Positions 3,582 through 62,008 are shown, counted from the stretch's first letter. The stretch: 64,000 nucleotides of DNA from Amoebophrya sp. A120 (GCA_905178155.1 CAJINV010000005.1:4837394-4901393); one strand, 5' to 3'. Numbers and translations: made by a program. Notes: generated from the letters alone by a model not told the origin.

Positions 3582-6179
3582 TCAAAACTTCGGCACCGGC
3601 TGCAGCGCGTTCTCGCATCTCGTCAAAGACTGCAAGATGTCGTTTTTCATTTCCCTCACTTTTTCCCCCTGCACGTCCACCTCTCTCCGCGAAAAATCGA
3701 TCCTGACGACGGATTTATCGGTTTGAAAGTTCACTAACCGGTTTTTCTCGTCGATCTTGATCTCCTCGCCGTACGTCTGCCGTAAGTAACTCGTCCACAC
3801 AGACCACAACTTGTTTTCGACCGAGCCGGTATTTCCACTCGGGTAGATCATGTTCGAACTCGCGGATGAATCCATGATCTGCGCGGTCAACGCTTGCACG
3901 GCGATCGGCGATCTCGTGATTTCCAGCGCGCTATCAAATGCAAAAGTGTCTGGGTCTGGAAGAGTGGAAGACTTGTCATGCAGGTTTTCCATGACCCGTG
4001 AGGTCTGTAATGCATGGTCTAGCATCACAGATTTTGAGAGGGCTTCCTGATGCCTGTTCCGCATGAGAAATGCCCTCTCGCCGTGGCAAAAACTGGACTC
4101 CTCTTGCTGGTCATGCATTACAGATTTTTTTCGAATCCGAAGACAGCATCACAAGTTACAACCTTCCAGACCCAGACATTTTTGCATTTGATACGCGACC
4201 AGAACGATGCTGTCGGCCACCATATCCGCGACGGGACTCGCTTTCCAGGAGAGCTCCAAAATCTGGTTTTTCAGCTTCAATCTCACGCAGTTCTGCACCA
4301 GCATTTCGTCATCCTCGACCAAAGCGACGTCCTGATAAATCCCCTCGATCGCCTTGGCGAGAACCGCGAGATTGTTTCGGAACTGGAATTTCTGCGTTTG
4401 CTCGAAGGAACAAACCTCTAATTTCGTGAAAGTTGCTAATTCGTGCGGGGAAATCAAAGACCGGTCACCAAACGCGTCTTCGACCAGAATACCAGAAATG
4501 GTCTTGCTGTTGGAATCGGTTTTGTTCAAAGTAGTGTTGTCTGTTGTAGTGTTCCCTTTATGCCTCTTCGCGATGGGGGAAACAGTGCCGGACTCCGGTG
4601 ATAAAGCGAGTTCATTGGTGGTAGCAAGCTGATCCCCACCTCCGGTCTGCAGTGCGTTGACTGAAGAACTCGGGTTATTCACCGCCGCGTTATAAGCGTT
4701 AATCGCTAATTTTCCCGCGATTGTCACCCCCAAATCCGGTCGGAAGGTTATCGCGACAGACTGCGTGTTCGCGGGGGTGTAGACTTTCAAGGAGTCACCG
4801 TGGTCCGTTCTTAATTTGTTCCGCATCCTGGTCATGTTGGTCTCTTCCCCGTGGACGAGAATCACGTGGTTCGTGCGGATTTCCCGGATAAACGCGGACG
4901 TTTGCGTGTAATCCGAGTGAGCGGAAAAGGAGATGTTGTCAATCGTGCAACGCACGTGGACGATCCGACCATCCGGTAGGTTCAACTGGTCTGGCTGTTT
5001 CTCCAGGTCCTTCGCAATGGTTCCGTCAACCGAATACCCCGTCATGATCACGGCGTTTTCCCGTCCGCCGGCCCACAGTTCGAACAACTCACGAGAAAAA
5101 CCGTTCTGCAACATCCCCGGCGCGGCTAACACCACACACGCGGATCTGGTGTTCACGACTTCAATCGTTTTTTCCCGGTTTTCCGTCCCGATCGATTTGA
5201 CAAACCGCAGCTGCCAAGGATTTTGACCACCCGACTCCATCCCGCGCGCTAAATGCGTAAACGTCTCGAAAATCCGGCTGCACTTCAACGCCATAGGACT
5301 ATTGTAGTAAATCGGCACGTGCTGTAGTTCCGGCGACTTTTGCCAGTGCTCTTCCAACATGAGTAACAACTCCTGCGCCCGGCCCAGGGCAAAGGACGGT
5401 AGGAGAACTTTCCCACCGTTTTTCACCACGGAAACCACCTTCGCCAAAAACCGCGTCTCCCGGATTTTCCGGTCTTCGTGGGATTGCGTGCCATAGGTCG
5501 ACTCCACAATCAGAACGTGAATCCGCATCGGCGGGATTTCGGCCGGCATCAAATGGCGGTCCTCCTCCCGGGAATAATCCCCCGTGTACAACACCCGGAT
5601 TCCCGCGATCTCCACCAAAAACATCGCCGCACCCAGCACGTGGCCGGCGGAAAAACACGTGATCCGCATCCCATCAATGTCAATCACCTGCCGCAGGTCG
5701 ATTAGTTCGATCTTCTGGCAGGTCCGCTCGATGTCCTTGAAGGTGTAGATTAAGTCGTCGTTGTTGATTTTGTTGATCTTACTGTGGTCCTGCCACAGCA
5801 TCTTGCAAATCGATTTTGTCGGATGGGTCATCAAGACTCTGCCCCGGAAATCGGTCCGGTTGACAAAGTATGGCACGGCGCCGGAGTGGTCCATGTGAAA
5901 GTGGGTGATGAGGCACAAATCAATCCGCTTTTTCTCCTCCTGCAGCTTGTCAAAGTAGGGAAGTTGCGCCATACCGGATAAACCCGGGTGAACTCCGCAG
6001 TCGAACATGACAGATTTCCCTTTAAAGCTCATGACGACACAGGACCGGCCGACCTCCTGGCCGGAGCCAAGCGGCGTGATTTCGAGGGTGTCACCGGCGA
6101 TTTCGATGGTGCGCTTCCCGGTTTGGCCACCACCGGTGACCACCGTGGGTGGCGCGGCGTTCGCAGCGGAGGAAGCCAT
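3582..6179 (-). CDS. CPSF3: CPSF73/Ysh1 metallo-beta-lactamase/beta-CASP pre-mRNA 3' endonuclease, 2 exons
   Basis: PLGSGQEVGRSC, THFHMDH, AGHVLGAAMF, YTGDYSREEDRHL, FALGRAQELL and FSAHSD motifs. Removing element 3932-4193 plus 5 nt gives DSIVLVALEITRS and joins ORF 3582-4118. Confidence 0.95.
3932..4193. mobile_element. Introner family A (TIR tatcaaatgcaaaa.tgtctgggtctggaa)
   Basis: About 30-bp TIR; TSD cgcgc/cgcga; inside CPSF73. Confidence 0.9.
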
Positions 6180-7201
6180 CTTGTCTTGTGGTTTTTTGTC
6201 GTTTCTGGTTTATGCGAGTTGTAATTCGAGTTTAGTGTAAAAACTGCTTCAACATCAAGAGGGTCTCGTCGTCAATAAAGCAGAGCTGGATTTCTTGTTG
6301 AAATTCGGCGTGTCGTACTGAAGAATCTGAAAATTCGTTGGAGTCGTCCGTACCTTGCTATCTACTTTCTTTGAATCAATATCTGATGTGTTTTCTATTT
6401 GAAAAACGTGGCGAAATAAGAGCCCACGGACCGCTGAAGTAGAGAAAAAAAGCAGCTTTCAATGGAAGACTTCAGAAACAAAAAGTGATAGCTTCAGAAC
6501 AGAGAACTGTGCTGATCTGTAACGCTAATCGGCGACCGCGAAAAACACTTCGTACTTTGGATCCTATGCTGTGCCTGCACTAATAGAACTCGGGCTGGCC
6601 TCACTGACTAGAGATCTTTCATCGGGTAAAACTGTCAGCAAATAAATAGTAACTGCCATAATATGCTGCAATAGAACACCTTTCCAAAAAATTCTGTTGC
6701 CAGAGAGAAGCGTATGATAGTTCTGCTTCTGTCGTCTATCGACGCTGCTCGTGCCACTGCTTGGATTTTTACAGAGATTTAAGCTTCTCAACTTCTGATC
6801 CTGCGAGTGGAGTCTTTTTCAAATTCAGATGGTGTGGCAGGATATTGTTTCTCTTGTTGTCGAAAGCGCATAAAGGGTGGTGGATACGACAGAACTGCTC
6901 TCATGCGGATCCTATAGTTTGTTGTTCTGTGAAAACTTTCACAATAACATTTTTGATACAAAACAGACTCAAAGGGCGTCGAAGTGTATTAAGCGACAGT
7001 CCCAGAAGGTCGGCCTAATTGTGATAACAAGGCCCCATGAAAGGTACGTGGTCCGATTATGAGAAACGTTGTATCCAATAATGCAAAACAAGAAGTACAA
7101 TGCTCAGTGTGAAATTATATCATGGAAAATAGGTTTGAGAAGCTACGGGTTTGGTAGGGGAGAAAGACGAATGAGAACGAGAAATCATACACCTCCAGCC
7201 C

Positions 7202-8842
7202 TTACTTCGACGTCATTTTGGTCAGCACCAAATGCCCCGGGCTTTTGTTCCTCGCAAACGGCGTCTGCGAACCGCCTATTGCGGACGGGGTGGACGTGTT
7301 GTTCGTTATTCGCAACTCCTGCGGCACCGCGTAGCTGCTGGTCTATGAACTGTAAAAGTATCGTACTCGTATATATAAATGCATGACAAATCTCCTCAGC
7401 ATGAGAAATAAAATTTGTCATGCAGATTTACCTTAAGGAAAAAATTTGTAATGCATCGCTGCGATTACTACGAGTACGATACTTTTGCACAGGATATGGT
7501 CGGTGAACCTGCAACGTCTACGTCCTTTGCTCCTGAAAGGTTAAACTCGAGGTCATCGAGGTTATGCATTGTAAAAGTGTCTGGGTCTGGAAGAGTCATG
7601 CTGTTTTTGCATGACACAGGAGGTCTGGCATGGAAGCTCTAGCATCACAGGTTTCGAGAACCTTCCGCAATGCCGAATCCGCATGACAAGTCGTCTCCTA
7701 TTTTGCTGACAAAAAGTAGGAGCTTTTGCTAAGTATGCATGAGGGACTTTTCTGTGTTCTGAAATACACATCACAAGTTGCATTCTTCCAGACCCAGACA
7801 TTTTTGCATTTGATAGAGGTATAAACCAGACAAATCCGTCTGGCCTCTGTCTCGTCCGGATAAATCTGACATCAACGACTTCTTCTCCCCGCTGCCCTGC
7901 GACTGCAGCATGTCGCTGGATTTCGACCGGGAGGCCATGCGCGCTATGGTAATGGACTGCTGCGATTGCAGCATCATATTTTCGCTATTGTTGTTCCCTT
8001 GCAGAATCGGGGCTGAGTCGCCCTCCGAATAATTCATAGTTCCTTTACTGCTCTCTCCTTCCGCCTGTTTCTTCTTCATCTTTTCGCTTTTTCTCCTGGC
8101 TCGTTCCTCCCGCAGCCTCATAATCTCCTCCGGGTCATCCTCTTGCAAACAGCAAAACACAATTCGCCTCCCTCGCCGTCTGAAATCTTTTTTCGTGCTA
8201 TCCAGATTCGACGCAGACCTTCTTAATTGCACCTTCACGATATGAGTGTGCACAACTCGCTCTCCCCCTCATTTGTAATGCAAAATACCGAATCCACATC
8301 CTGCTTTGAGGCTCTGCCTGCATGCCAAATTTTGGAATCTCAAACAGTACTACAATCGATCCGTGTTCAGATTTGTCATGCGGAAGCGGCATTTCTGCTG
8401 TTGTTTGTGTTGTTGTTCATGCCACACAAATGAGGGGGAGGGGGAGTTGCGCACTTTCATACACGAGTTCTACACCCGCGAAGGTGGTGGCGGTTTGCCC
8501 TGTGTTAGTTGGCGTCGCTGGTGATTGTGCGCCGCTGTCATTTTTCGTCCCATTCGCACTTATTGTTCCCGCTGTGGCGCCCGTTATTCCACCCGTTGTT
8601 GCCCCGCTGGCACTACCAGAACTCGTCGTTGCCCCGGAAGTGGTAAAGCCATTTACCTTATCGGTGGTGCTTCCGCCGGAACTGCTTTCTGCGTCAGGAA
8701 GATGAGGAACGGACTCGTCCTTGGAGAGAACCTTGTTTTCCAGGTTAATAGTCGGCTTTCGCGGCTTCGAGGGATTGTTAGCGTCCGAGCTTTTAGCATC
8801 CTGCTCGCGGGGGGACAGCTGCGCTCTGGTGATTTGGATCAT
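7202..8842 (-). CDS. Hypothetical low-complexity protein with 3 introners; 5' end uncertain
   Basis: In-frame joins ELV|KVQL, LYL|DDLEF and SPTS|SYAV after excision; stop TAA at 7202. The ATG at 8842 follows TTCTAG, so an upstream exon is possible. Confidence 0.6.
7344..7496. mobile_element. Introner family B (TIR tat....tgcaaaagtatcgtactcgta)
   Basis: TSD tggtc/tggtc. Confidence 0.9.
7563..7815. mobile_element. Introner family A
   Basis: TSD gaggt/gaggt. Confidence 0.9.
8241..8461. mobile_element. Introner family C (TIR tatga.agtgcacaactccc...ccccctcatttgt)
   Basis: TSD cacga/cacga. Confidence 0.9.
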
Positions 8843-9807: not shown

Positions 9808-12800
9808 CTACTTCTTCTTCTTTCCCCCAGAACCTCCCCCTTTCGCCGCTTGCTCCTCCCGCCGTTGCCTCAGTTTCGCCTCTAATTTCGATTCCGTCGC
9901 TTTCAATTCCTTTTTCACGTGCTGCGTCACTTCCGTTGGCTTCCGGATGGTACGTTTTTTCGCGGCCCCGGCGAACGTGTCATCAAATGCGTTCATTTTC
10001 GGGATCATTTTGAATTTTTGCCTTTTCGTCAAGGGGGCCGGACGTTTCGGCGCGAGAACTTTGCGATCGTCGTAGTCATCCACTGCCACGATGGCGGTAT
10101 GAGGGTCGTAGTTTTCAACATCGTCTTCATTATCGCTCTCACGAGCAGCGTCTTCGTCTTCCACCTCGTGGTCCGCCCCGCCTTCAAATTCATTATCATC
10201 CGGGTTTTCATTTTCTTCTGAATCTTCGTCCCCACTAGATTCCTGATGATCATCCTCTGACTCAGAGTCAGACTCAGAATTTTCCTGTTCCTCCATTCCG
10301 TCCTCAAGCGCCGCATTTTCTTCTTGTTCGTCCAGCTTCCTCTTCACAACACTCACCCCACTCGCGTGATGCGTGACCTGCGTGGTCAACTGCGTGAACA
10401 GATTCCTCTTTTCCCTCCCGTGCCTCGATACCCGGAAATCGCCAATTCCGATCTGGTCGTGAATACTTTTCCCGATTTGCAAGTCCACCGTCCCGGTTTC
10501 TGGATTTTTCGCGTTTGCGGCACGGTAGTTGAAATCTTTCACCCGCGACCACTTCTTGTAACCGTCGTGAGCTGCGACGACCTGGTCGTTGGCGGGATTC
10601 ATTTTGTCGTTTGCGAGGACAAGATGTTGGTTTTTGGAGGAACTGGAAATTGCGGAACTGGAAGAGACACGACCTTTGCTCTGCTGCTTGGATGAGGAGG
10701 CGGAAGTACCACCACGGAGATTATGATTGCTCGACTTTTTTTCCATCACGTCAAGATCTTCCTCCGCACTATCCTCTTCTTCTGGCGGGAGCAGGTACTC
10801 CTTTTTCGCTTTCTTCCGCGGCGGGGAGGAGATTTTTTTCTCTTCTTTTGCATCAAATTCCAGAACTTCTTCCTCCTCTTTTATTGTTTCTAGATTCGGA
10901 TTGAAACTCGAGCTTTTGCTGGTTTGCTTCTGCAGGGAGGTCGTCGTGCTGAACAATTTGTTTTTAGCACTTTGCTCCTGCAACTCGATTCCTTTAATAT
11001 CTTCGTCGCTGTTTATTTCTCCGTCGATCTTCTCGTTAAAAAACTCGTCCAACTCCTCGCCAAACTGGATATTTTCATTATTTTCATTCTGACTCTGTTG
11101 CTCCTGTTCCCGGGCAAACTTTGTTTCGAAATCCTCCTCATCCTCTTGTTCGGCGAGATGATGAAACCCAGCACTATTATTCCCAAGAAAGCCGCTGTTG
11201 TCTTCGAAGCTCGCGAGGTCGTTGTCATAAATCTCATGATTCTCATCAACCTCCATCTCGTTCTCCTCGTCACTGTAGTTAAAGTTATCGTTATCCGCGT
11301 CGTCCTCTTTAGCATTATCTTCTACTTCCGAAAAAGCAGTACCACCATCTTCCTCCCCAGCATTCGCCTCCTTTTCCATCTGCCTCAAGGCGGCGAAAAG
11401 CGCGTTTTTCTTTTTCTTCTGCCCGCGCGTCACTATCGTCCCGTCCTTCTTTCGCCACACGCCCTTCCCGATCTTCCCCCGACCTTTAATCGGGCCTTTT
11501 TTCCCTTTTCCCTTCCCGGTGAACAGGAAGAGATTTCGCGCTTCCACCTTATCGGAGTTGCAGCTTTCCTTCGACGATTGGCGGCTGGAATTCGTTGTGT
11601 TCCGCGATTTCCGTCTCTATCCTATGTAAAAACGTCATCATCCCGTAGCTGTAATGCAAATGCGCAATGACAGGAGCATTTGTAATGCACATCTCCATGG
11701 GAGGCATTTATTCCAGTTGTGTTTTGGATTTTGTAATGCTGTAAACAGGATGAGAAAGTGGCTTTCTCATGCGGCTCCCCTTGCTAACAAGCACCACCCT
11801 GCAAATGGAAACTTGTCATGCACAACTCCCTAAGCCTGGAGATTTGTCTAGCAGACTTCCCATCTTGACTATGGGGTGGGGACGTTTTTCCTCACAATAG
11901 CCTCCCGGCGACCTTCAACGGGTCAAAATCGTGAATCCGCTGCAGCATGTATTCTGAATAAAAACATCCCCACCCCAGAGTTGTGTCATGCAAATCTGCA
12001 TGCCAAAAAAGTTTCTCATGCGAAGCCACATGAGAAGCGTTTTTTAGTTGTGTTTTGGGATAATTTGTGATGCTACAAGTAGCATGATAAGCTAGATCTG
12101 TGATGCTGACAAACTAATCTAAACAGGATTACACCACGAGGGCAAGAAACTTGTCATGCGAAACAACCAAAGTTGCCTGATTTGTCTAGCAGATTTTCCA
12201 TGCTGACTCTGGTATATGGGGACGTTTTTACTCAGGATAGCATGTAAACTTTCTCAATCGCCTTCTCCCTCGCGTCCGCAAGCTCGGTAACCGTGAACCC
12301 GCCGTGCTTTAGGTAGGCGTATTTAATCGAAATTTTGTCACTGAGTTCTCCCTTCGTGGTGGTCGTCGTGTGGTTATCATTATTTTCCGCCGCGGCTAGA
12401 CACTCCTTCTCGTAGTTCAACCGCTCACTATCCAATTCATTCTTCACCGGGTACACTTTTTCATCCAGGAAACAAACCCCAGAATCGATAAACCGCGCCC
12501 ACCAGTAGCCGGGGGATATGCATTGCAAATATGTCTGGGTCTGGTCATGCTTGCCTGGCATGACTGAAGAGTTTGTCATGCGTGTCCAAGAAGAGGCCCT
12601 TTTGCTTGTCATGCAAAAGTAGAACGCAGTTTGTTATGCGGAAAGCGCAACACCAAGCAGCGCAAATATTTCTCATGCTTCGCTGTGCATTACAGACAAC
12701 TCACTACTCACAACTCAGCATTACAAGTTTCCAGACACAGACATAGTTGCACTTGATATGGGACAGCGGTAAGCAAGTGCCCGCAGCCGTGGTCCGCACG

Positions 12801-15800
12801 GAGGTCTTCTTCGGATCCGACCAAATCCACCGCACGCCGTGTCCCTTGCCGGTGAGTTGCGGCTGGTAGGCAAAGGAAGCAGCGATTTCTTCCTCTTTCG
12901 CTTGTAGCTGTTTCGCGAATTCCGCTTTTTTCTCCTTCAATGCGAACACGTTCGCAATGCGCTGGTCCGCTTTCGTTTCGACGTGTGCTTCATTATTTTC
13001 GCTATCATTTTCTTTTTCCTCATCATCGCTGTTTTGAAAATCTTCCTGGTCATCTTCGCTGGCGTTGTGGTCTTGCTGACCATCGTCACTCCCCCCTTCA
13101 CCCCCCTCGTTCTTATACCTCCCTTCCCTCCACCGTTTCGTCCCGCCGACGTTCTTGCTGACAAACAGCTTCCCGTGCTTCATTTCATTCTGATTCGCCG
13201 GTTTTCTCTTTCGTTTTTTCTTCAATTTCTCCTGTTCTTCCAGCTCCTTTTCCCCTTTTAACTTCAACTCCTCCGCCTTCTTAATCTTCGCTTTTTCTTT
13301 ATCGGTGCAGTACACGTAGCAGAGGTGTTTCTTCTCCTGTTGAATTCTCCACTCAATTGCCTTCTGCTTCGTCCGCTCTACCTCCTCCTCAATCTTGTCC
13401 TGATCGTACTCCCAGTTGGAAATCTGCGGCACAAACAATTTCCGCAGGGTCTTCTTTTTCGAAACGGTCAATTGCGCGATCCAGCAGGGAGGACGGAACT
13501 GCTGCTGTTTTGCTTTTCGTTTTGTACTATTTTCGTTTTCGTTCATATCATTTTTGTCATCATCATCCTCAACATCGGAGTTATGATTCTCATCCTGCTC
13601 ACCGATGAAGACCTTGTTGTTCGGCCGTCCGTCGGCGAAGTCATCGTCCGAAAAATTCAGGGGGTTGTCGTCCAACACTAACTTTCCGTACGCCGCATTG
13701 TATTTCGTGCCCATCAAGCTGCCCTTGCTGTTGGAGCGGGAATTGTTCTTCAACGCGGAGAATGGGTTGGGATCTTCACTAGTACAACCATTGTGTAGTA
13801 GTTCTTGTTCCTTTTCCTTGTCCTTCTCTTTCTTCGCATTGTTCCCTCCATCCCCAAACCTATCAAATGCAAAAGTGTCTGGGTCTGGAATGTTGCCGGG
13901 TTTGTCATGCATATTTTCCATGGCCCAGGATGTCTGTAATGCACGGCCTAGCATCACACATTTTTAGAGGGCTTCCCGATGCCTATCCCGCATGACAAAT
14001 GCCCTCCCCGCTTAGCACAAACTGGGCTTCTATTGCTGGTCATGCAATACAGATTTTTTTAGAGTTCAAAGTTAGCATCACAAGTTCCAACCTTCCAGAC
14101 CCAGACATTTTTACATTTGATAAAACCACCCTTTCCGCCACGTCACGCCGGGGTAGCCAGATTGTCGAAACGTATGACAGTGCACAGCTCCGCCTCCCCC
14201 TCCTTTGTCATGCAAAATACACAAAATCCAGGGTGTGCCTCTTGGCACTGTTTGCATGACAAGAAGCTACTCCGGAAGAAGCCCAAACGCTACTACACTC
14301 CTGCGCAAATTTGTCATGCGAAACCCGCATTCTAGCTGGCGCTTCTATTGCCGCTGATGCTACATGAATGAGGGCAAGGGGAGTTGTGCGCTCTCATAAA
14401 ACGCCGGCACCTTGTATTTTCGTCTCCACATCGGGTACTGCCCGGTCTTCTTGTGCATGATTGCGATCGCCTTGATGTGCTCCGCGCGGAGGGTGATCAG
14501 CGATTTTTTGTACTCCAACGCGTCGTCTAACGCACGGGATTTCGCGCGTTCAAATTTCTCCTCTGCTGGGTCGTCTGGGTGGATGTAGGGGAGGATGGGG
14601 TAGTCTTGAACAACTTTGAGGAGTTCGCTTCTGTTCTGCTTTATTTCTGGCGCGCTTTCTGTGTCTGCTTGGAAGAGGTTTTTCTTTTTAGTCTTCGTTC
14701 CCTCGGGGAAATAATCGTCTTCGTCATCGGACAGAACTTTCTCGTCCATGAAACTATCCGTCGTCTCCTTATCCTTGAACGGATTACTCACCGCCTGGTG
14801 GTATGCATTGCAAAAGTCTCGCACTCGTGCTAATTGCGGGTATGCATGGCAAATCTAGCTCTCCAAGATAAACCAGGATGACAAACTCCATGTGGCATGC
14901 CCAGAAAATTTGTAATGCAGTTTGTACTTGAGTACGCTACTTTTGCAGTGGATAGGTGGTGACACACTCGCCAGTAGCTGTAATTGATGTTTTTCGGCTC
15001 ATATTTGAACTGGACTCCCCGGAGGCCGGAGAAATCCGTCGCGTTTTCCCCCGTGAAGTCCTTGATTTTCCGGATGCGCTTCTTCAGCAGCGGCTTTACT
15101 TTCTTAGATGTTCGTGCGTGGTGCCTGTTTCTTTCAGATTTATGCTGCTCATCCCATTCGTCATCTTGCTCTTCGTCGCCGTTTTGGTCTTCGTCAGATG
15201 CAGCGAAATCATCGCCATCTTCATGAAACTTGCGGCGTCGTCGATGTTTTTCCTTCTTCTTTCGTACAAAATCATCATACTCTTCCTCCGAATCATCCTC
15301 ACTCGAAGCCGGACCTTCTGATTGTTCCGAAGAACTACTACTGTTACTGCTGCTGCTGCTACCCATCAATTCTTTCAGCTCCGGTAAATTCTCGCCTAAC
15401 TTGTTTAAGCCCAGAATATCCTCCTTCTTTTTCTTACCCTGTTTATTTTTCCCTCCTGCTTGTTTATTGCTTCTGTTGTTCTTTCCCAAAACCACATCTG
15501 ACGGCAACGCGTGCAGCACTTCCTGCCCGTACGCAGTGGGGTCGAAGTTGATTTTGCCGAGAAAATTCACCTTCTCCATGTCTTCTCTTATCAAAACATT
15601 CCCACCGCTCGCAGAGATGAGAGCTCCTGTGTGGTTTATTTCGTCGTTGTTCTCCTCTTCGACAAGCAAGTCACGACCGTCTTTCAGATCGACGAGTTGG
15701 AACTGTTTTTCGTAGTCTCTTTCCAACTTCTTCAATAGTTGCTTCTTCTCCTTCGTGGAATAGGACTTGACTAGTAACTCCTGTTGGAGTTGGAAACTCA

Positions 15801-17463: not shown

Positions 17464-17793
17464 TTTGATGCTCGTCGTGATAGATTCACATGCAGCTACG
17501 GCTTTAGTTCCTAGAAGTTGGCGGTGCTTAGTAGTAGTGCGTCCTTCTTTTTATTTCTCGCTGCGCTAGAATTGCTGGAAGATGGAAATCAGAAACATGA
17601 CATAAGCACAACTCCGTGTCGTCTCCTCGCTCGACGCCAGCTATTGACGAGAATCGAGACAGATGTGAAGACCCTCGCTCTGAGCGACCCTGCGCTTGCC
17701 TCTCAATCCGCACTCAAGATTTCCATTTCCGCTCCGAATTCCGGCGCATGAACACGAACGAAGAACGAATAGATAGTACAAGGTGGCGACGAT

Positions 17794-34412: not shown

Positions 34413-34461
34413 CCCGCCGCGCAGCTCCTCCTGCTGGTTCCGCCATCACAAATTCGCCAGA

Positions 34462-50200: not shown

Positions 50201-53200
50201 CCTAAAAATGGATATTTGTCATGCATGATAGCAATTACTACGAGTACGATACTTTTGCACAGGATATTCTTTGAACTGCAGCAAAAGCTCTTCCGGGGTG
50301 GAATACTCGGTGGCGACACTGCTTTGCTGCATCTTTTCCTGCTGCGGTAAGAACCCAGAAGGACTGGCGGGTGTAAAAGAAGTTCCGCTCACCCTGCTGC
50401 TCCTTGCGCTGCCTTTCGCCGCGGCATGCTGTTGACCCCCTATGTGTGCAGCCGAGGTCGGCGGTGACCAAGCGGTTATCGACGCGACGCTCTTGCTATC
50501 CGATTTCGCAGACTGTGGCGGGCTGGAGAAGTAGTAGTAATTGTTGCGTGTTTTGTTCTGCTCTTCATTCAATTTCTCTGGCGGACTACTGGACGCTGCG
50601 CTGGCGAACCCGGCGATGTTATCAAAAGGAAAAACTCCCCCTCCCCATATTAAAACGGAAATCTGTGATGCAGATTTGTTGTCACAAATCAGCTTTGTCA
50701 TGCTACACGGGAAAAGATGCGGACTGTAGTGCTGGGTGGCGTGGGGAAGCCTTGCATCTTCAGCATGATAGGAGGCAGCTGAAAGTGGGAAACAGCATGA
50801 CAAATTGCCTGCAAACGAGGCCACGACTGCGGCTCTTGGCCTTCTAGCATGACAAATCGATTTGTGACCTCAAATACAGCATCACAAATTTCGTTTTCGA
50901 TATGGGGAGGGGGGATTTTTCCTTTCGATAGATGTCGTAATTCTCCTGGTCGTCGAGAAAGTTTTGGTTTTTGTTCAGAGGTATGAACTGCAAATATGTC
51001 TGGCTCTGGGAGATTCCGAGCCTTGTCATGCAGATTTTCCATGATCCATGTCGTCTGGAATTCAGCACCTAGCACGACAGATTCTCTGAGATCCCTACCA
51101 TGCCTATCCTGCATGAGAAACTCCCTGTCAACTTGATCGAAAGTGGACGTCTTTTGGCACTCATGCAACACAGAATCTTGCATGCTTCAGACTTAGCATG
51201 ACAAGTTGCAACCTTCCAGATCCAGACCCAGACATATTTGCAATCCATAAGAGACTGAAGCACCGTGGTCAAAGGTGACCGGGGCCGCTTGTTCGTGTTG
51301 TTATAGCCTTTGTTCAGCATTTCATGTCGTGGACTGCTGTTAAAACTGCTGTTAATTGCCGCGGTGCTCGCAGTATGCATTGCAAATGTGTCTGGGTCTG
51401 GAAGATTGCTATAGCAGACTTGTGACGGCGCAGGTCTTGCATGACCCATACCGTCTGGCAAACAGGACCTAGCATGACAGATTCTGTTTTTACATCTCTA
51501 TCATACCTCTCCTGCATGACAAACTGCCTCTCAACTTGGGCAAAAATACACACCGTTTGGCAATCATGCAACACAGATTCTTGCACCATTCTAGACTTAC
51601 CATGACAAGTTGCAGTGTTCAGGACCTTCTAGACATATTTGCACTTGATACGCATAGGCAGCTTGCTTCACTTTCCCAGAAGAAAACACTTCTTCCAGCT
51701 CCTGCATTCGTCTTCTCGCTTGTTCGATTTTCTTCACTTGCTCCTCTTTGGACAAAAGCTTGCTCGCGAAATCATTTTTAGCGGTCTTCTTGTTGCTTTT
51801 CCCAAATTTCAAATTGTTGTTACTCCTGCCCTTCTTGTTCGCATTCAGCACTTCCTGCAGCGCCTCCTGGGCTATTAAGAGGAAACATCCCCCCTCCCCA
51901 TATCGAAAAGGTATGCTTGCGAAAATTTGTGTTGCTGATTTGAGACCACTAATCACGTCTGTCTTGCAAGAAGGCAACTCCACAAGCTCCGCAGCATTGT
52001 GCAGGCGGTTTGTGATGCTCATGGGCCTACATCACGGACTTTTCTCATGCTAGACCCCTAGGCCAAAACCTCTCTACTTAGGCTTAGTATGGGCCTGCAT
52101 TCCTCTCCAGCAACACAAATCTGACTTGTGTACGCAAATCCTGCATCAGAAACTTCGTTTGGATATGGGGAGAGGGGATTTTTCCTTCTGATATGCGCTT
52201 TCTTCGCTTCGAGCCTCAGTTTTTCCAATTCCATTTCCCGTTTTTCGTTTTCAATCTTCTCCCGTTCCTCCACCAACTGCGCAAGCATGGTTTCCTCTTT
52301 CGCCTCTTCACAGATCAGCTCGCCCTATCAACTGCAAATATGTCTGGGTCATCTGGAAGATTTCTCATGCAAGTCTGGTATGACTCTGAGCTCTGTATTG
52401 CGTAGCCGCAAAGACGAGCTCCTCCTTTATGTCTTGCAAAAACGTAGTTTCTCATGCGGAGTACGCAACTCAGAACCACGGAAAAACTTGTCATGCTGTG
52501 CAACGCATTACAGTGTGCTCACTATTTTCCCCGTGCTTGCATCACAAGTTTCCAGACATCCACGGGAGATATTTGCATTTGATACGCCCTCGGTCGTGTT
52601 CAGCAGCAAGTCGTCATTGTCGTATTCGTCGGGCTCTTTTCTGTCAAAGCTGAAGGGTTATCCTGAGTAAAAACGTACCCACACCAGAGTCAGGATGGGG
52701 AATCTGCTAGACAAATCAGCCAGCTTTGGTTGTTTGGCATGACAAGTTTGTCCGCGTAGTGTAGTGCTGTTTGAGCTAGTTTAGCAGCATTACAGATCTA
52801 GTATCTCGTGCTGATTGGAGCATGACAAATTTCAAAACCACACTAGAAAATGCTTCTCATGGGGCTCCGCATGAGAAACATTTTAAGCATGCAGAGTTGC
52901 ATGACAACTATGGTGTGGGTACGTATTTACTCAGGATAAGGGCTTCGGCTTAGTCACCGGGGCGGGTTGGATGTTTGGGTTGTCGGTGTTGGGCGGGACA
53001 AGATTTGGATGCAGCTTGTCCCGTATTCTCGTCGCCATGTTGTTTCGGCGGGCAGTGGAGCTGTTGTTATTCGAGCTGGATTGTAGTTTGCCAGCAGTCT
53101 GTCTTGCGGGTGCTGCTGGGGCAATTTTTCCACCACCAATATTCGCCATGTCCTCCCTCCGGATGATTTCCGTTCGCGTTTCCTGCTTCAGATGCGCGGG

Positions 53201-56200
53201 CTTGGTTGTGGACATCACGACATTGGTACTGTTTGATGTAGTTCCGACACCACCAACATTACCGCCGCCGCGTGGAGTTGTACGTGAGTTCGAATTTGTA
53301 TTGGCACTACCAACTCCATGCGACGAGGACGATTTCAGCACCGTTTTGTTGTAATTCCGCTGCACGATTTCCGGATCATTTTGCACCGAATGTTGGAAGT
53401 TCGTCTCTGCGAAATTCGGTAAATCAACCCCGGTTGTAACAGCTCTACTCTGATGTCCGCCTCCTCGTTGTTCCCGTCTTGACGTCGAAGACGAGCTCCC
53501 GCCGATTTGTTCTTTCTGCGCGCCCAAAATTTTTTCCCTGTTCAATTCATACCGCATCCGCCGGTCTTCTACGCGTTCTAGGAGGTCGGGTGAGGTGGAG
53601 GTAGTCCCCGCGGCCGACGTGGAGGTTTTCGTGCGTTTTTTCATTGCACCACTAGCACCCTGCGTCGCTGTTCCAGAGCCGGAACCTACACCGCCGTTCT
53701 TATTCCCAGCGCTAGAAGCGGAGGACGATGATGTCCAGGTTAAACATTCCTTCGTGTATGAACTGCAAAAGTATCGTACTAGTTCTAGTATAAATTGCAT
53801 TACAAATTCACTTAGCATTACAAATCAAATTTGTAATGCGGATTTGCATAAATGCAATTAGTACGAGTACGATACTTTTGCACAGGATATCGTGTTTAAC
53901 TTCCCGATTTCCGATTTCAAATTCTGGTAAAACGTCAGCCTCTCCGGATTTGCGGAAGCGGTTGCGGTGGAAGCACTTTTGTCACTTGTCATGCCAACGC
54001 CAGCTGTGAAGTTCGTTGGGTCTTTATCGCATCTATCCTGTGCAAAAGTGGTACAGCACTCGTAGTATTGCAATACGAATTCGCTCAACACGACATAAGA
54101 AACTTGTCGTGCTGGTTTGCAAAATTGCGAATACTACGAGTACGATATTTTTGCACATGATAGCGTCCGCCGCTCGCCGTGCTTTCATACGACATCACGC
54201 TGGCTTTCGAGGATTTTGCGGAGTAAAAACTGAAAACATTCTGACCTGCAGCAGTTCCTGTTCCTTCGTCCCGCTGACCCCGCTCCTCGTCCTTCGTCTC
54301 CGCGTGGTCGGTGTCGAACAGATTCGTGGTGTTGAGATTGTTGTTGCGATAATTCTCATCTCCGTGACGATCCTGTTCCCTCGTCGTTGATTCCTTCGAA
54401 CTTGGAAAAAGTCTGGACGCGAGGGACTCGAATACCGTGTTCTCTAGGAACGGCTTTTTCGAGTCAGAAGCGGATGCTGTTGTTGTGTCTAGTCCACCTT
54501 TATTCATTCCTGCGTGTTGTGACGAATTCTGATTTTTCTCCCTTTGCTTGTCGCTCACCTCCTTCCGAAACTGGCTGCTCCCATCGGCCATCTGCTTCTG
54601 AACGATTTTTTGGGATTCTTTACTCAAACCGGATTTTGGTGCGGGGATCAGGGACGGCTTGTTCGCAGACGCAGCGCTGTGCCCTCTCCCATGCGATCCG
54701 TGCGAAGATCCCGGTCTTGACGAAGAGGACGCATATTTGCCTTGCTTTATTCCGGACGACGGTCGTGAGCTTGCGGATGCACCTGAATTCACTTGTTTTT
54801 CGCTGACACAGCATATGGAATAATTCGTGCTGCACTTACTATGCAGAAAAACCTCCCCAATGATAGATTGTGACTTCGACGCCAAAATTTAGATTTTCCC
54901 ACTTCCGAAACCCTAATGCAAAAATCCTTCCTACCTCGCCCATGTCTGCTGCCCTGCAGGTGCTCCCCACCGGTTCTGCCAGCACTACTCACAGCTGCGT
55001 CGAGGGTCGCCAAATTTTTCGGCTCGGAATTGGCTCCACCTCCATTCTATGAAATGCAAAAGCAGCGTACTAGTAGAAATCGCATTACAAATTTTCTCAC
55101 CAATAGAAATGGAATTTGTAATGCGGAATTACCTTGATAAAAAAATTTGTAATGCATGAATGCAATCACTACGAGTACGATACTTTTGCACAGCATACAT
55201 TCGCCCCCGCGATCTTCGACATGAGATGCCCGAGCTCCTCCTTCGAATTGGCGACTTGCTCGGCGAGTTCCCGTTTGGAATTTTCTAATTCCACCTTCAC
55301 CTCCTCGTGCACTATGGAAGCGTCAGGTTTGAAATCGTCAAAGTTGAAATAATTTGTAATGCATAAAATGCGTGACCTGAGGCACGTGTGTTGCAGAGCA
55401 GGCAAGTGAGGCCGATTGTAAGCCTGTTTGGGGTTACATCTCGAGCTGCTAAAGTAGCATAAGAAAATCGCTCTTCTTTGCCTAAACAGCATGACAAAGT
55501 GGATTTAGGGACCACCGAAATTTGTCTTGCGCCGCTTACAAATTGGGTCACAATCTTTCATCCATTTTATGCATGACAAATTATTTCAACTTTGGCGATT
55601 TCAAACCTGACGCTTCCATATGCACTTGGCTGTTATTAAACGCGTTCATGATCAGCTCCTGGCGGTGAAAGTGACCTTTCTGCGGATCGTTCGCACCAGG
55701 ACCCAAGCTTGTCAAATCAGTTTCTACTGCGCCATTATACCCCGCTGGTGCTGATGTCAACATCTGCGAATTACAACTATACGGGTTGTAGTTTGATGGA
55801 CCACCAGAGGATGCAGCTCCTGCTCGTCCGCTCGCAGTACTATTCTTATTCGAATTACTGATCACCGCCCCCGCGGTGTATTGCATGGCCTGGGCAACTT
55901 GCTGCAGCGTCTCCGTCAATCTCCGCTGTTGCTCGTTCTGCAAGCTGATTTGCCCCTCCAGCAACCGCGCTTGCCGCTCCAGGTAGAGTCTTTGCCACAT
56001 GCCTTCGAACACCTGAGGCTTATGGATCTGTCAGATTCGAAATCGACAAAGTTGAAATAATTTCTGATGCATAAATTGCAAGGCATGAAGTGCCTCTCTT
56101 GCAGGGATGGCAAGCGAAACCGACTGTAGGCCTGTTTGGGGTCTGCGATAGAGCTGCTAAAGTAGCATGACAAAAGACGCCCTCTGTCCCTCAACAGCAT

Positions 56201-56682
56201 GACAGACTCGATTTAGACAGTGCCGAAATTTGTCATGCGCCGCTTGGAAATTGGGTTTCCAACTGGTATCGATTTCATGCATTACAAGTTCTTTCAACTT
56301 TGTCGATTTCGATCCTGACACATCCATAAGGGTTTTCCTTTGCGTACTGCTGCGCGTCGGAGGCGAAGGAACCTGCATTTTTGTATGCTGAGTACATGTT
56401 GTTCTACTCCCAAAGAACGCATGCGAAATGAGGTTTGCAATGTGAGATCATATCGCATGACAAAAAGCGCCCAGTAAGAAGATCTTCCCATTTATCTTCT
56501 ATACCTTCCACATCTTCGTCGAAAAGGACCCGGGTCGTGTTATTTTTCAATTCGTCCTCGGGCGTTTTCGATACCATCACATCGTCGTCGTCCTTCGTGA
56601 CGATCAAGGGGTCGCCCGCCTCGATGATCGGCACCTGCTCCGTGTCGAGCTCAATCATGGATTCTTTACTGATCTTCAACAT
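47285..56682 (-). CDS. Large low-complexity coiled-coil hypothetical protein with 14 introners and several other introns; could be more than one gene
   Basis: Series of same-strand open segments separated by introners; ends LSEGEVLLSDGEM*. Not all junctions were resolved. Confidence 0.5.
47321..47572. mobile_element. Introner family A
   Basis: TSD ccctc/ccctc; right half near-identical to 13861-14122. Confidence 0.9.
48860..49180. mobile_element. Introner family F
   Basis: TSD tgccc/tgccc. Confidence 0.9.
50117..50266. mobile_element. Introner family B
   Basis: TSD ttctt/ttctt. Confidence 0.9.
50620..50930. mobile_element. Introner family F
   Basis: TSD gatgt/gatgt. Confidence 0.9.
50982..51249. 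mobile_element. Introner family A
   Basis: TSD agagg/agaga. Confidence 0.85.
51374..51650. mobile_element. Introner family A
   Basis: TSD cgcag/cgcat. Confidence 0.85.
51873..52193. mobile_element. Introner family F
   Basis: TSD tgggc/tgcgc. Confidence 0.85.
52326..52584. mobile_element. Introner family A
   Basis: TSD cgccc/cgccc. Confidence 0.9.
52659..52938. mobile_element. Introner family D
   Basis: TSD agggt/agggc. Confidence 0.9.
53757..53889. mobile_element. Introner family B, short
   Basis: TSD tcgtg/tcgtg. Confidence 0.9.
54034..54162. mobile_element. Introner family B, short
   Basis: TSD gcatc/gcgtc. Confidence 0.85.
55048..55197. mobile_element. Introner family B
   Basis: TSD cattc/cattc. 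Confidence 0.9.
55313..55620. mobile_element. Introner family I (TIR tatggaagcgtcaggtttgaaatcg.caaagttgaaata)
   Basis: About 40-bp near-perfect TIR; TSD tgcac/tgcac. Confidence 0.95.
56021..56328. mobile_element. Introner family I
   Basis: TSD aggct/agggt. Confidence 0.85.
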
Positions 56683-57233
56683 TTTTGGTATTGTGCTTAT
56701 GGCGGGTACAGGGCGGGACTGAGAACTTCTTCTACCGATGCGATGGGTTAATAATAGCGCGAATTCGACTATACATATGGAAGTTTCCAACTTCTTCCGT
56801 ACGTGCGTGCTCCTTGCAAACAAGCAGCGCAGAAACGCGGTAGGTGAATAAGAGACACTACACAAACTGAAGCGCTTTCTGTTGCAAACTTCAGTCTTCA
56901 CTCACGTCGAACAAATTTTGTCGGCTTCTTTGAGAGAAAGAGAGCAAGTCCTTCCGGTCACACAAGAAAACGGCAGCTTTGCTCATCTCACATCAAAACT
57001 TCTTTTGATGCTAGAACACAAACGACGAGTAGGACCACCACGGGAAAACTGTTTTGTACGAAGATTTCAGGGTGGTCGTGAATACAGGCACATAGTAATC
57101 ATATTGACCACTGTGCCGACGAAATGAAAGCTGAGCGGGTGCAGAAACGCCAATAATGTAAAAAGAAGCTTTGCTTGTTTTGAATATAGACGTTGCAAAA
57201 GTTGTATCTTCGAGAACTTCCGTTCATTATTCG

Positions 57234-60200
57234 TCACCTTTTCGGCTGCTGTGGACTACTACTACTGCTATTTTTCGTGCTTCTATTGGAGGTTGCACTA
57301 GGTTTCTGGTACGGCCCCGCACTGGCAGCACTCGAACTACTTACTCCCGCAGCGGAGGTGCCCGCTGAGTTCCTGTTCTCAATGCACCCATCGAGCGATA
57401 TCGCTTCCAGGATCCTTACCCTTGTGTCCTGCTGGTACGCAACAGCCGCGGTGTTCGTACTGAAATCCGGGGCAACCATCGTGTCCTGCATGGTTACATC
57501 GGCCGGAGGCTCATCGTTCTCGTTCAGATTTATCTCGTCCACCCGATTTGCCTTCTCCGCAGATGACGTCGTCGGAGAGGACGAACTCACAACAGACCGC
57601 TTCCCGTCGTCGCTGCCGAGCGCGAAGGAAGACAAAGTGGACAGCTGCGCGATGGAATTCTTATCCTCGTCTTCCGCGACAAGCGAAACCGAATCCGCGT
57701 TGGAGTTCGTTCTCGGCGGCTGACTCAGAGTGGTGACGGAGGAGGAGGAACTCGGAGAAGTTCTCGCGTTATTTGTACTGCTAATACCTTTAGTACCTGG
57801 GGAAGAACGACTCGGGCTTCCTCTCGGGTTCGAAGAGGTGGAAGCTTGTGCAGCAGCAGCGGTTCCGGGGACTACCAGCAATTCCGCAACGGATTCCGCG
57901 CCGGGCGGGGGCTGGTACCGCGGGACGTGTTCGGAGGTGGAGCATGTTGAACCTTCCGGGTTATCTGATGTCAGTCTCAAATCACCACTACTGCTACCAT
58001 TGCTCTCGTCCCGGTCCGCCCCTCGGGTCACCTTGCAGTGAATAAAAACCACCCCGAACAGGCCGATCACGCACAAAACCGTGAAAAACAATTGGCTCAT
58101 GAAGTAATTGTTTCCCGTCGCGTCCACCAAGTGTCCGTACACGATATTTCCGAAAAACAGCCACAGGGACTGCTGCATGTAGCACCCCCCCACGTGCAAA
58201 ACTTCCAAATCCTTGTTTTTGCACACGTGGGGCACCAGGGTCCAGAGCGGCACGACGCAGCAGCCGAAACCAATGCCGAGAATCACGCAGCAGACCCACG
58301 GCGGAATTTGGAGAAGCGCGTTGTGGATGGAGGAGGTCGTGAGGGTTGAGTTTGTTTGGAAGGAACTCAACATTGTTGTCCCAAAAAAGCTGCTGCTGGT
58401 ACTGCCACTGCTGTTTTCAACATTATCCTCGAAGAAGTTGTTATTTGTCCAGGAGACGTCGGCGCTATTGTACTGAAACGCAGCAGAATCGTTGTACTCT
58501 GTGTCGTAGGCCTTCAAAGTGATCAGGCCCTGACCGATGAAGAGCAGCACGAACGCGAAGCAAGCAAACCGGATCAAGCGTTGAAAAGTGTGGAGCAGCG
58601 GGGCCAGGAAGAGGGAGACAACGGAGATTCCGGGAATCAGCGCGATCGCGGAACCGGCGACGCTGTTTGGTTTTTCGTTTGGTGTTTTTGCATGACAGAT
58701 TCTACTTTCGTGCTTGCTTTCTTGCATGACAAACTAGTTTTGGACAACTGACAACCAAAATAGTAGATTTTACCTCTCCGACACCCCCGCGACCCTTTGC
58801 AACGTCAGACAGCCGTTGTACTCGAAAACGAACACCACTGTGTATAGCAGCCCGATTAGCGCTTGGTGGATGAAACACAAGGCGGTCAAATCTTTCAGCC
58901 CCGGCTTGCCATTCCCGTCACTGCCATACTTCCCGCCGCCCCCGCTCGCGGCTAGCAGCGGCCGGATCTTTCGGGAAATCTCCGTCCCGCTATACAGGTA
59001 CGCGAAGGACAGGTAGCAGCACCCGGACACGCAGACGAAGACGAAGGAAAATTTCATATCCTGAGTAAAAATGTCCCCACACCAGAGTCAAACTGGGAAA
59101 TCCGCTAGACAAATCAACCAGCTTTGGTTGTTTCGCATGACAAATTTGTCCTCGTAGTGTAGTCCTGTTCTAGGTAGGTCAGCAGCATCACAGATCTAGC
59201 ATGTAATGCTGATTGTAGCATCATAACTTCCGAAACACGACTAGAAAATGCTTCACATGGGGCTCCGCATGAGAAACTTTTTTGGTATGCAGATTTGCAT
59301 GACAAATCTGGGGTGGGGGCATTTTTCCTCGCGATATTTCAGCGCCTTCAAAAACGCCGGGTTGTTGGTGTGTATGTCCGCATCTGGGTCGGCGAAGTAC
59401 TGCTTCAAAGGGTCGGCCAAGATGTAGCCCATGGTCCCGCCGATCCGGCACGCCGCCAACACTCCCGCCTGCGCGATCGCGGCGTACTTTTTGCTGAAGA
59501 GCAGAAACACGACCACCACCTGCACCACCCCGGTGGTGCAAATCCCCGCCCAGAACAGGACCCGGCCGAGGATGGAGAGGAAGTACACCTCATACTGGAT
59601 GGCGGCGATTAGTAGGAAGGACCCGAGACAGACCATGGACCCGAAGAGGAGACAGGATTTCGAAATGCCCCAGTTCCGCACGAGAAACCCCGCCGGGCCG
59701 GAGAGCACCGCGGAAAGCGAGCCCGTGGCGAGATATCAAAATGAAAAATCCCCCCTCCCCATATCAAAACGGAAATTTGTGATGCTGATTTTTTTTTTTT
59801 TTATGGCGGCAGTTTGTTTTGGCTACTAAACTTGCGATGAATCTCATTCCTAGTTTTCATTTTGACCTTAATGCTGCCGCGGTGCTCACGTCGACCGATA
59901 TGCAAACAGGTGCCGAGGCCTGTTTGCATGCGATCTAGTGAAGGTATATTGGGCGTTCCCGTCTGCCTTACCACGTCGCCCGGGCTTGCAGGGTTGGGAT
60001 TTTCCTGCCGGATGTTCAACGACATCTACGTGGCTAGTCATGATCCCTCTCCCTGTTGCGACCTGCTTTTTTGTTTGGTTGAAAAAATCCAAAAAATGCA
60101 AGGTTGAAAAAAAAACAAAGGCCGCGGTCTGTATTTGTTGAAAGATAGGAGGGAAACCCACCACGTAAGCAGGAGAAAATTTGGGCACGAGAGAAACAGA

Positions 60201-62008
60201 GCATGTACTAGGGCTGGGATTATGAAGCGGAGGCCATTAGACTACGAGGGCAAATATGTAATGGGCCAGACGATGAGAAAAGCGACAAACTTACTTAGGG
60301 GCTCACTAGCTAGCAAGGGCGCGAGGGGCTATCAATCGCAAGTAAAGCGGCCTAGGGAGAAAATGCTTAAGACTCGACAAAAGCCAAAGGAATCATCAAC
60401 GATGCGAAAAAAGCGAAAAAACAACAGAGAATCAGAGGCGCAGGCTAGAGGAAGAAAAAACGCTTAACGGTCTCTCAGGAACAAGAGGAAAATCGTAGCC
60501 AAAAAACCAGAAGAGATTCTTTCAGTTAAGGGGAAAAAAAAAAGAGGATAGGACGCGAGTTGTCATGCAAATTTGCTGCAATGACAAGAACATCTGCGAT
60601 GCGCATCCCCCGGATAGGCATTTGCAATCGTGTTTGGGGATTTGTGCTGCTGTAAACACGATCAGGACATGAATTTGTAATGCGGCTGGTGTTAATTTGT
60701 AGTTCTATCCGTGGATGAAACAACATACAAACCTGAAAGACATCACAACAATTTAGATGCTGATTGTGTGGTCACAAATCATCTTTGTCTTGTATATAGG
60801 ATCATAGGAGCCATTTGACGCATTCCAGAGCAAGTCTGTCATGCGCTTTCGACTACTGCAAGCCTGTTTGTCATGCGCAATTGCTAGCCTTCTGCATACC
60901 CAAACAAGCTGAGAAAATGCCGCCAAGCACTTTCTGCAAGACAGATCTGATTTGTGTACGCAAATCCAGCATGAGAAACTTCGTTTCGATATGGGGAGGG
61001 GGGATTTTTCCTCTCAATACGAGGATGAGGGAGTACTTGGTGTTGTTGATGTTCATCGCGAGCTGCAAATCCTCCTTGTATGGGGGTGTCAGGATTGAAA
61101 TCGACAAATTTGAAATGATTTGTCATGCATAAAATCGATACCAGTTGGAAGCACAATTTCGAAGCGGTGCATGAGAAATTTCGGCACCGTCTAAATCCAG
61201 TTTGTCATGCTGTTTAGGCACAGAAGGCGTCTTTTGTCATGCTACTTTAGCAGCTCTATCGCAGACCCCAAACAGGCTTACGATCCGCCTCACTTGCCAT
61301 CCCGGCAAGACAGGCACTTCATGCCTTGCATTTTATTCATCGCAAACTCTTTCAACTTTGACGATTTCAAACCTGACACATCCATACCTTGTACGCACCA
61401 AATAAGCTGTCGAAGAAATACGGGCCGGGAATGAAGCAACAAACCAGCACGTGGACGATCAGCAAGTGGCAGGTTCTCCTCGGATCCACCAGGTACTTCA
61501 TCCACCGGTCTAAACAGGTCCTACCGGGTCGCGACGAGGAGCTCGACGGGCTGGTGCTGGAGGAGTTCTGCTCTTCATGATTGCCCCGCGACCCCTGCTG
61601 GTCGTAGTTGTTGTCCGCTCCTCCTGCTCCTCTTGTTCCGATATTAAGGAGGTTGCTGGAAGAGGAATTCCTTGAACTGGCCGGCGAATTGTCTCTACTA
61701 CTCGTTGCTGCGAAAGTATCGAACGCGTGGCCCGCATTTTCGTTCGTGCCGTCGAGGGCGGGCAAGGCGATGGAGAGCACGGGTTCGGACCCCGCGGTCC
61801 GGATCCACTCTTGCTTGGTCTTTTGCACGTAGAGTTCCGGATTATTACTTACTCGGCTGGGCGGTCGCTGCTGCTGTTGTTGTGAGGCAGCATGGTCAGA
61901 TGGATTCAGCAGCGGGCGGTCGCGCCGATTGTTCCCGGCGGACGGCGAGGACGGCCTGCGCGGGCCCTGCTGTCTGCGCTGGTTCTGGCTCGGTTGCGAA
62001 GAACGCAT
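57234..62008 (-). CDS. MFS transporter, MFSD1-like
   Basis: Multiple hydrophobic helices; HVLVCCFIPGPYFFDS, SGPAGFLVRNWG, ILGRVLFWAG, IVYGHLVDATG. Joins YK|EDL, LIL|ATG and ALK|FSF are in frame. Confidence 0.8.
59057..59336. mobile_element. Introner family D
   Basis: TSD tttca/tttca. Confidence 0.9.
59734..61019. mobile_element. Introner family F expanded by an internal insertion of about 965 bp
   Basis: Family F TIRs 1286 bp apart; TSD cgaga/cgagg. Confidence 0.85.
59791..60755 (-). mobile_element. Retroposed insertion (poly-A tail plus 10-bp TSD) nested in an introner
   Basis: gatgctgatt duplicated at 59781-59790 and 60756-60765; T-run at 59789-59802. Confidence 0.75.
61079..61386. mobile_element. 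Introner family I, inverted relative to the 55313 and 56021 copies
   Basis: TSD ccttg/ccttg. Confidence 0.9.

Follow-up and report, generated by a model that had tools for sequence, protein, structure and literature searches.

Removal of inverted-repeat introners in a 64-kb window of Amoebophrya sp. A120: diverged flanking duplications point to a fixed cut

How Amoebophrya removes tens of thousands of introns that lack GT-AG ends is stated as open in the accessible text of PMC7789003 (Farhat et al. 2021), partly because the direct repeats flanking these introns hide the border. A 64-kb stretch of Amoebophrya sp. A120 DNA (64,000 nucleotides (nt) of CAJINV010000005.1; hereafter the window, to which all positions refer) raises this question directly. 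Its genes are interrupted by inverted-repeat elements that the original prediction, made from the sequence, took to be excised from RNA together with 5 nt by a mechanism independent of GT-AG. Our analysis indicates that removal almost certainly takes place at the RNA level, and that the independence from GT-AG dinucleotides is supported.

To define the elements, we searched for TAT/ATA pairs whose 20 terminal bases were complementary at 13 or more positions and whose flanking duplication matched at 4 or more of 5. Both thresholds were passed by 49 pairs in the window and by none in each of five order-2 Markov shuffles. After false or overlapping pairs were dropped and copies found by homology were added, the list comprised 53 elements of the form TAT...ATA, from 3932 to 61386, and two decayed candidates near 34201 (34201–34350, far end not defined) and 37138 (37138–37352, ends not defined), somewhat short of the roughly 58 predicted. 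The elements formed 11 clusters (18, 11, 7, 5, 3, 3 and 2 members and four singles), of which the seven multi-copy ones are called families 1–7 below; at least nine families with terminal inverted repeats (TIRs) had been predicted. Families 1–5 measure about 260, 150, 280, 320 and 224 nt, and family 6 measures 308 nt. Both orientations occur, the closest pair is 87% identical, and 51 of the 53 elements are 129–331 nt long. The predicted TAT...ATA bounds apply to most elements, but one end has decayed in 27303–27565 (RNA 3′ end to ATG), 28361–28623 (RNA 5′ end to TTT) and 42146–42388 (RNA 5′ end to TAC; duplication 3/5), all of family 1. The 5-base duplication is exact in 37 elements, 4/5 in 13, 3/5 in two and 2/5 in one, so that 50/53 are exact or nearly so, as expected from the prediction; no base preference was found within the duplications of 52 elements. 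One element, 45122–45365 (family 1), is nested inside an older one, 44955–45400 (duplication 2/5); both leave the transcript together, and the inner element is therefore not an intron of its own.

Stop codons and intron ends were counted on 52 elements, including the nested 45122 and excluding 44955. In agreement with the prediction, 46/52 contain stops in all three frames, and merely three can be written as GT-AG at any register of the duplication (six if GC-AG and AT-AC are counted), so that the elements for the most part lack the GT/GC-AG ends of U2-type introns. All of the 11 elements that were folded pair their ends, over 7–20 of the first 20 inverted-repeat positions and with z scores from −4 to −11. 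Short, with TIRs, a duplication of fixed length and no coding capacity, the elements have the properties of miniature inverted-repeat transposable elements (MITEs).

The phenomenon is real and already known. Exon queries from the window retrieved two proteins, P0001 and P0003, that are 100% identical and named by their source as Amoebophrya sp. A120. The accessible parts of PMC7789003 describe, for this strain, introner elements whose inverted repeats start with TAT, seven variable bases and AAA, with direct repeats of 3–5 nt (5 in the Fig. S19 legend) and RNA-supported non-canonical ends; no transposase is reported inside the introners, nor was one found in A120. Given the protein identity and this description, the window elements are a sample of the published A120 introners and do not differ from them in kind, bearing out the prediction's remark that inverted-repeat introners with non-canonical ends had already been reported in Amoebophrya. 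The difference lies in the border, which PMC7789003, as far as accessible, leaves unknown or variable, whereas the duplication is here sharply 5 bases long and the cut is bounded to its base 3–4.

For a wider sample, we used 168 loci (L001–L168) of the public assembly JACKZZ01, taken from the 13 parts, of 64, that were scanned. These carry the families of the window, with best matches 74–98% identical for 49 of 52 window elements. Among 333 elements collected there with no filter on the duplication, 251 have an exact duplication of 5 bases and none an exact one of 4, 6, 7, 8 or 9. Pooled ends show A at 92–98% for positions 11–13, fitting TAT-N7-AAA; the profile reads TAT-S-...-TGC-AAA, with family 6 departing from AAA (TCAG). 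Within an element, positions 4 and 7 frequently fail to pair from end to end (113 and 83 of 215 Watson-Crick), and positions 4–7 form a recurring internal loop that is flanked by the constant TAT and by positions 8–13, which pair well. No ortholog of a window gene, and hence no empty site, was present among the 168 loci, and the inverted-repeat pattern gave no match in viral contigs.

We then asked what transcripts retain. The RNA evidence consists of four contig sets from one sample, which are unstranded and whose RNA status is an automated guess. On 42000–61990, where 12 of the 22 independent elements have no listed joint and 42000–44000 is uncovered, 15 of 24 joints were listed. Ten of these skip one element plus exactly 5 nt, three are GT-AG introns on the minus strand (45441–45573, 48020–48143 and 49452–49582), and two element-to-element joints were dropped as cross-locus matches. 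The ten skips correspond to 44633–44895 (family 1; 268 = 263 + 5, in 4/4 runs), 44955–45400 with its nested element (451 = 446 + 5, in 4/4 runs), 45698–45846 (family 2; 154 = 149 + 5), 45960–46290 (family 4; 336 = 331 + 5), 47321–47572 (family 1; 257 = 252 + 5), 48860–49180 (family 7; 326 = 321 + 5), 50117–50266 (family 2; 155 = 150 + 5), 50620–50930 (family 7; 316 = 311 + 5), 50982–51249 (family 1; 273 = 268 + 5) and 59057–59336 (family 3; 285 = 280 + 5). The loss predicted for transcripts was thus seen at 10/10 single-element joints, and no other skip length over an element occurs among the 15 listed joints. The flag 'between: not known' is attached to seven of the ten, and contiguous record coordinates confirm three. 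Two raw-read RNA runs, X8 and X9, placed just 9 and 23 reads, with no joint among those listed.

Consistently, in 11000–30900 a single 2023-nt contig joins 23341 to 23182, a skip of 153 + 5 nt across the family 2 element 23188–23340 (duplication 3/5). A model that removes seven elements at +5 and four minus-strand GT-AG introns yields 2023 nt with all listed anchors matched, versus 2030 or 2016 nt at +4 or +6. Besides 23188, the elements are 19842–20097, 20936–21214, 21269–21521 and 21771–22032 (family 1), 22382–22702 (family 4) and 20653–20859 (single in the window). The model is partly fitted: the introns 20168–20373 and 22741–22894 come from the contig, and 21556–21699 and 22129–22269 were placed by eye and fit its length.

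Proteins gave the same answer. P0001 (776 aa) is the spliced form of the CPSF73 gene at 3585–6179 on the minus strand, which holds one element (3932–4193, family 1, duplication 4/5). P0004 (2002 aa; 9811–17550, minus strand) spans seven: 11618–11899 and 11950–12239 (family 3), 12517–12758 and 13861–14122 (family 1), 14173–14398 (family 5), and 14802–14954 and 16688–16844 (family 2). Both proteins equal the element + 5 translation over their full length. P0003, an annotated 1773-aa orphan protein (47288–56682, minus strand), aligns in 19 pieces, with elements making up 14 of its 18 introns, and fits element + 5 at all 12 junctions checked, bringing the three database proteins together to 20/20. 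In addition to 50117, 50620 and 50982, these junctions are 51374–51650 and 52326–52584 (family 1), 51873–52193 (family 4), 52659–52938 (family 3), 53757–53889, 54034–54162 and 55048–55197 (family 2), and 55313–55620 and 56021–56328 (family 6).

RNA or protein support thus extends to 34 of 52 independent elements, and the remainder are backed by restoration of the open reading frame (ORF). These are 7344–7496, 27637–27787 and 29225–29374 (family 2), 7563–7815 and 24870–25124 (family 1), 8241–8461 and 25438–25661 (family 5), 25746–26030, 28675–28953 and 39365–39643 (family 3), 26163–26466 (family 4), 24551–24711 and 26651–26823 (singles), the three elements with decayed ends, and two that have no joint among those listed, 59734–61019 and 61079–61386 (family 6). 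Removing element + 5 opens minus-strand ORFs of 2031 aa (seven elements), 1251 aa (11) and 1050 aa (nine), and the predicted motifs VLVALEI and LPCPV are reproduced, in keeping with the claim that deletion restores frame and motifs. Every long element-spanning ORF lies on the minus strand, which agrees with the unidirectional gene clusters described in the accessible text of PMC7789003. Two long elements retain intact ends and a duplication: 59734–61019 (1286 nt), in which family 4 ends surround about 1 kb of extra sequence, and L023:505-1608 (1104 nt), the longest in the JACKZZ01 loci.

Could these skips arise without splicing? Reverse-transcriptase template switching is a known cDNA artefact, and a hairpin between direct repeats is its substrate; since all of the RNA evidence is cDNA-derived contigs, the elements might be retained, or the genes dead. 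However, the C-terminal domain of CPSF73 requires removal of its element and is continuous in the homolog P0002 (77% identical, with the same VLVALE), the 44955 junction shares just one base and yet is exact in 4/4 runs, and the seven to eleven elements of each ORF must all go, which makes this explanation extremely improbable. Alternatively, certain cells or stages might eliminate the elements from their DNA, for which internal eliminated sequences of ciliates are a precedent, and transcripts could be copied from element-free templates: precise excision at the DNA level would likewise take away an element with one copy of the duplication, and with 15 of 1742 joint rows listed for the DNA run (X5) there is room for rare excised alleles. 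Yet the DNA contigs of this run continue from exon sequence into the elements without a single difference in 8/8 pieces listed, and contigs without elements also lack the GT-AG introns, as in spliced RNA. We regard DNA-level excision as very improbable as well.

To locate the cut within the 5 bases, we used junctions at which the two copies of the duplication differ, because the retained base then bounds the cut (upstream and downstream are given in the RNA sense). The upstream copy is kept at base 1 in 3932, 50982 and 51374, at base 2 in 56021, at bases 2–3 in 23188 and at base 3 in 54034. For 12517, the retained base 5 is that of the downstream copy, P0004 having Pro, not His. The transcript of 44955 keeps upstream bases 1 and 3 together with downstream base 5, placing its cut after base 3 or 4. 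A cut at or after base 3 is thus indicated by 23188 and 44955 (RNA contigs) and by 54034 (P0003), and one at or before base 4 by 44955 (RNA contig) and 12517 (P0004). The one position shared by all eight informative junctions (three read from RNA contigs, the other five solely from proteins) is after base 3 or 4; the chance that 8/8 would allow base 4 under random registers is 0.027, computed after the fact. At 21269, which has a base-3 mismatch, the retained base was not seen. These data make it probable that the cut is fixed at base 3–4. Cut there, one of 52 elements would read GT-AG and one GC-AG; the GT-AG case, seen when the cut falls after base 4, is 61079–61386.

Three observations make us lean, with less assurance, towards a cut specifically after base 4, which would give introns of the form N-U-A-U...A-U-A-N-N-N-N. 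The resulting N-TAT start matches that of the local GT-AG introns, six of seven of which begin with GTAT (48020–48143 begins with GTAC). Supporting this position, the T at the RNA 5′ end appears to be conserved strand-specifically: it changed 0 times, and its 3′ mirror base six times, in 274 oriented elements (p = 0.03, predicted beforehand), which were found without requiring TAT (42 from the window, the rest from the public assembly) and oriented with a model correct in 49/52 cross-validated window cases. Moreover, T is the second base in the non-canonical types of Table S4 of PMC7789003, in the part accessible: the nine top A120 types are all N-T at the 5′ end, and the nine top A25 types all TT. 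Separately, among 198 oriented elements from the JACKZZ01 loci the duplication begins at a third codon position in 108, which corresponds to phase 0 under a base-4 cut.

Which machinery makes this cut? We favour a U2-type spliceosome of relaxed specificity, steered by the terminal hairpin, and assign this a probability of roughly 0.55. As far as the accessible text of PMC7789003 goes, A120 has most spliceosome proteins and U2, U4, U5 and U6, with no U1 found, and the cut geometry leans towards involvement of the spliceosome and away from independence of it. In the mechanism that we propose, a DDE transposase of the integrase/IS3EU kind would have mobilised all families through their TAT-N7-AAA ends and internal TGT-N-ATGC repeats. 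The first T of the element would supply the +2 U of a donor that resembles the local GTAT but leaves its first base free. The hairpin would draw the two ends to each other and, taking over the role of AG, fix the acceptor 4 bases beyond the stem; the relaxed spliceosome would then remove the element with 5 bases from RNA. In a different scheme, a non-spliceosomal, structure-guided endonuclease would make a cut of fixed stagger next to the hairpin, and a ligase would join the exons; candidates are tRNA-splicing or IRE1-like chemistry, or machinery of the kind suspected for euglenid introns. The lack of a dinucleotide rule and the strong terminal stems in either orientation suit such enzymes, as do the missing U1 and the euglenid nonconventional introns, which have inverted repeats, fixed spacers and reported circular products (PMC11282704, PMC12501133, accessible parts). 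On the other hand, the cut register falls in line with the GTAT start of the GT-AG introns, there is a weak indication that the +2 T is conserved by strand, and the internal motif common to elements and GT-AG introns suggests a single pathway; we therefore hold this scheme to be possible but doubtful. The register might instead float, two copies of the duplication sufficing for a cut anywhere within them. The Fig. 3 legend of PMC7789003 calls splice positions relative to the hairpin variable, and mismatches are enriched at third codon positions (32/54 versus about 21 expected), as would fit both copies being exonic at times. However, the latter excess is also within the expectation for a fixed register, 8/8 informative junctions agree on base 3–4, and the element with a 2/5 duplication is still removed exactly. 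We consider a floating register rather improbable.

Several points weigh against hairpin-guided splicing by a relaxed U2-type spliceosome with a cut after base 4. The RNA data come from a single sample of unstranded contigs with guessed status, and the exons are covered by contigs only, which gave no sign of a lariat, a branch point or an excised product. The database proteins are probably the output of RNA-guided annotation and are not independent of RNA data. The three base-4 mismatches, which include a silent one at 11618 and one at 24551, are silent or uncovered, and cuts after base 3 and after base 4 are not told apart by any junction. The T asymmetry, which amounts to 6–9 events, weakens when orientation is called strictly (p = 0.06, then 0.5), and the A120 entries in Table S4 may be shaped by an aligner that favours partly canonical ends. 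Mismatches in the duplications do not drift toward GT or AG. G-U and A-C oppositions are equally frequent in the inverted repeats (195 versus 182, positions 4–25) and so give no sign of RNA-strand selection on pairing. Finally, the Pfam scan of 37 window exon stretches contained no transposase family.

The elements also share an internal motif, first seen in the window. TGT-N-ATGC (with the variant TCTCATGC, on either strand) has 182 matches in 13,590 nt of elements versus 23 in the 50,410 nt outside them, a 29-fold higher density. It is present in 50/52 window elements and in 293/298 elements of the JACKZZ01 loci, is common to all multi-copy families, occurs equally on both strands and peaks 30–49 nt from an end. 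Such symmetry between the strands would fit a DNA-binding site, for instance the subterminal repeats of a transposase. The motif also occurs in five of the seven GT-AG introns (7 matches in 1033 nt, Poisson p = 7e-8), with two copies each in 20168–20373 and 22129–22269, one each in 21556–21699, 22741–22894 and 45441–45573, and none in 48020–48143 and 49452–49582, and it has one match in 20,626 coding nt. Its occurrence in GT-AG introns without a recognisable inverted repeat suits either introner descent or a role in splicing. Profile searches of these introns against the element families returned mostly motif-sized matches, the best at 13.5 bits versus 1.0 for shuffles, with a weak family 2 match in 22129–22269; descent of GT-AG introns from introners is, on this sequence evidence, only suggested. 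GCAT-N-ACA was rejected as a branch site: both orientations are equally frequent (442 versus 413), N is almost never A, and the motif is not near the 3′ end in GT-AG introns.

Neither the cut rule nor the shared motif was found in the literature searched or in the text of PMC7789003, figures, subscription papers and bioRxiv supplements not being visible; both the bounded cut position and the motif are leads from small numbers. Taken together, they raise the tentative possibility that one modified spliceosome reads a second splice code, with a donor N-U-A whose U comes from the transposon end and an acceptor 4 bases past the hairpin without AG. The TGT-N-ATGC box would mark introners and ordinary GT-AG introns alike, and the latter would partly be aged introners. 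If so, insertion would be silent in either orientation, which would account for the spread of many families throughout the genome. The N-U-A donor, if fixed, and the shared box offer concrete targets that could show whether a hairpin ruler replaces the AG rule. Diverged duplication copies reveal the true border, and this approach could be scaled up with the publicly available genome and raw RNA reads; with the bounded cut and the shared motif, the open splicing question becomes directly testable.

Comparison with related systems, each in its accessible parts, places the elements more closely. Gozashti et al. 2025 (PMC12130899) list 58 A120 families, many of them classed as TIR DNA and 149–340 nt long, like the window elements; their family 38 combines inverted repeats with integrase-like ORFs. 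Automatic duplication calls there range from 2 to 6, versus 5 here, and the cut rule is absent from the parts accessible. Euglenid nonconventional introns (PMC12501133, PMC11282704) are alike in their non-GT-AG ends, terminal pairing, border-blurring direct repeats, fixed stem-cut spacing and probable MITE origin. They differ in having a CAG/CTG core and spacers of 3 and 5 nt, as against TAT/ATA and apparent spacers of 1 and 4 nt in A120, and the window elements do not carry the CAG 5′ and CTG 3′ ends. The introns of Fritillaria borealis (PMC11282704, PMC13326754) are likewise MITE-derived and non-GT-AG and are handled by an altered U2-type system, but they prefer AG-AC and AG-AT ends, whereas the A120 elements leave the first base and the last two unconstrained. 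IS3EU/GingerRoot transposons (PMC10045372) share the TA..TA termini; their duplication is usually 6 bp, a length at which 0/333 of our elements are exact (251 at 5), and membership is therefore not claimed. In Amoebophrya ex Karlodinium and AT5, introns are mainly of the GT-AG type (PMC12005148).

The host genes are for the most part not recognisably conserved, since 31 of the 37 exon stretches scanned have no Pfam match at E ≤ 0.01. Among the conserved genes named in the original prediction, CPSF73 is upheld by Pfam and P0001, and CCDC103 is supported by weak Dynein_attach_N and RPAP3_C matches and by RNA joints in the gene, which contains 45698–45846. IWS1 and a major facilitator superfamily (MFS) gene were not confirmed by Pfam on single exons, the best MFS match reaching E = 0.35. 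Two segments of P0004, SGLRGVQF and SGYPGVTW, are conserved in P0005; we take them to resemble ApiAP2 DNA-binding domains, a match that Pfam did not give. Additionally, the ORF at 34465–35526 on the minus strand encodes a microbial-type PARG catalytic domain (PF10021, E = 1.5e-14).

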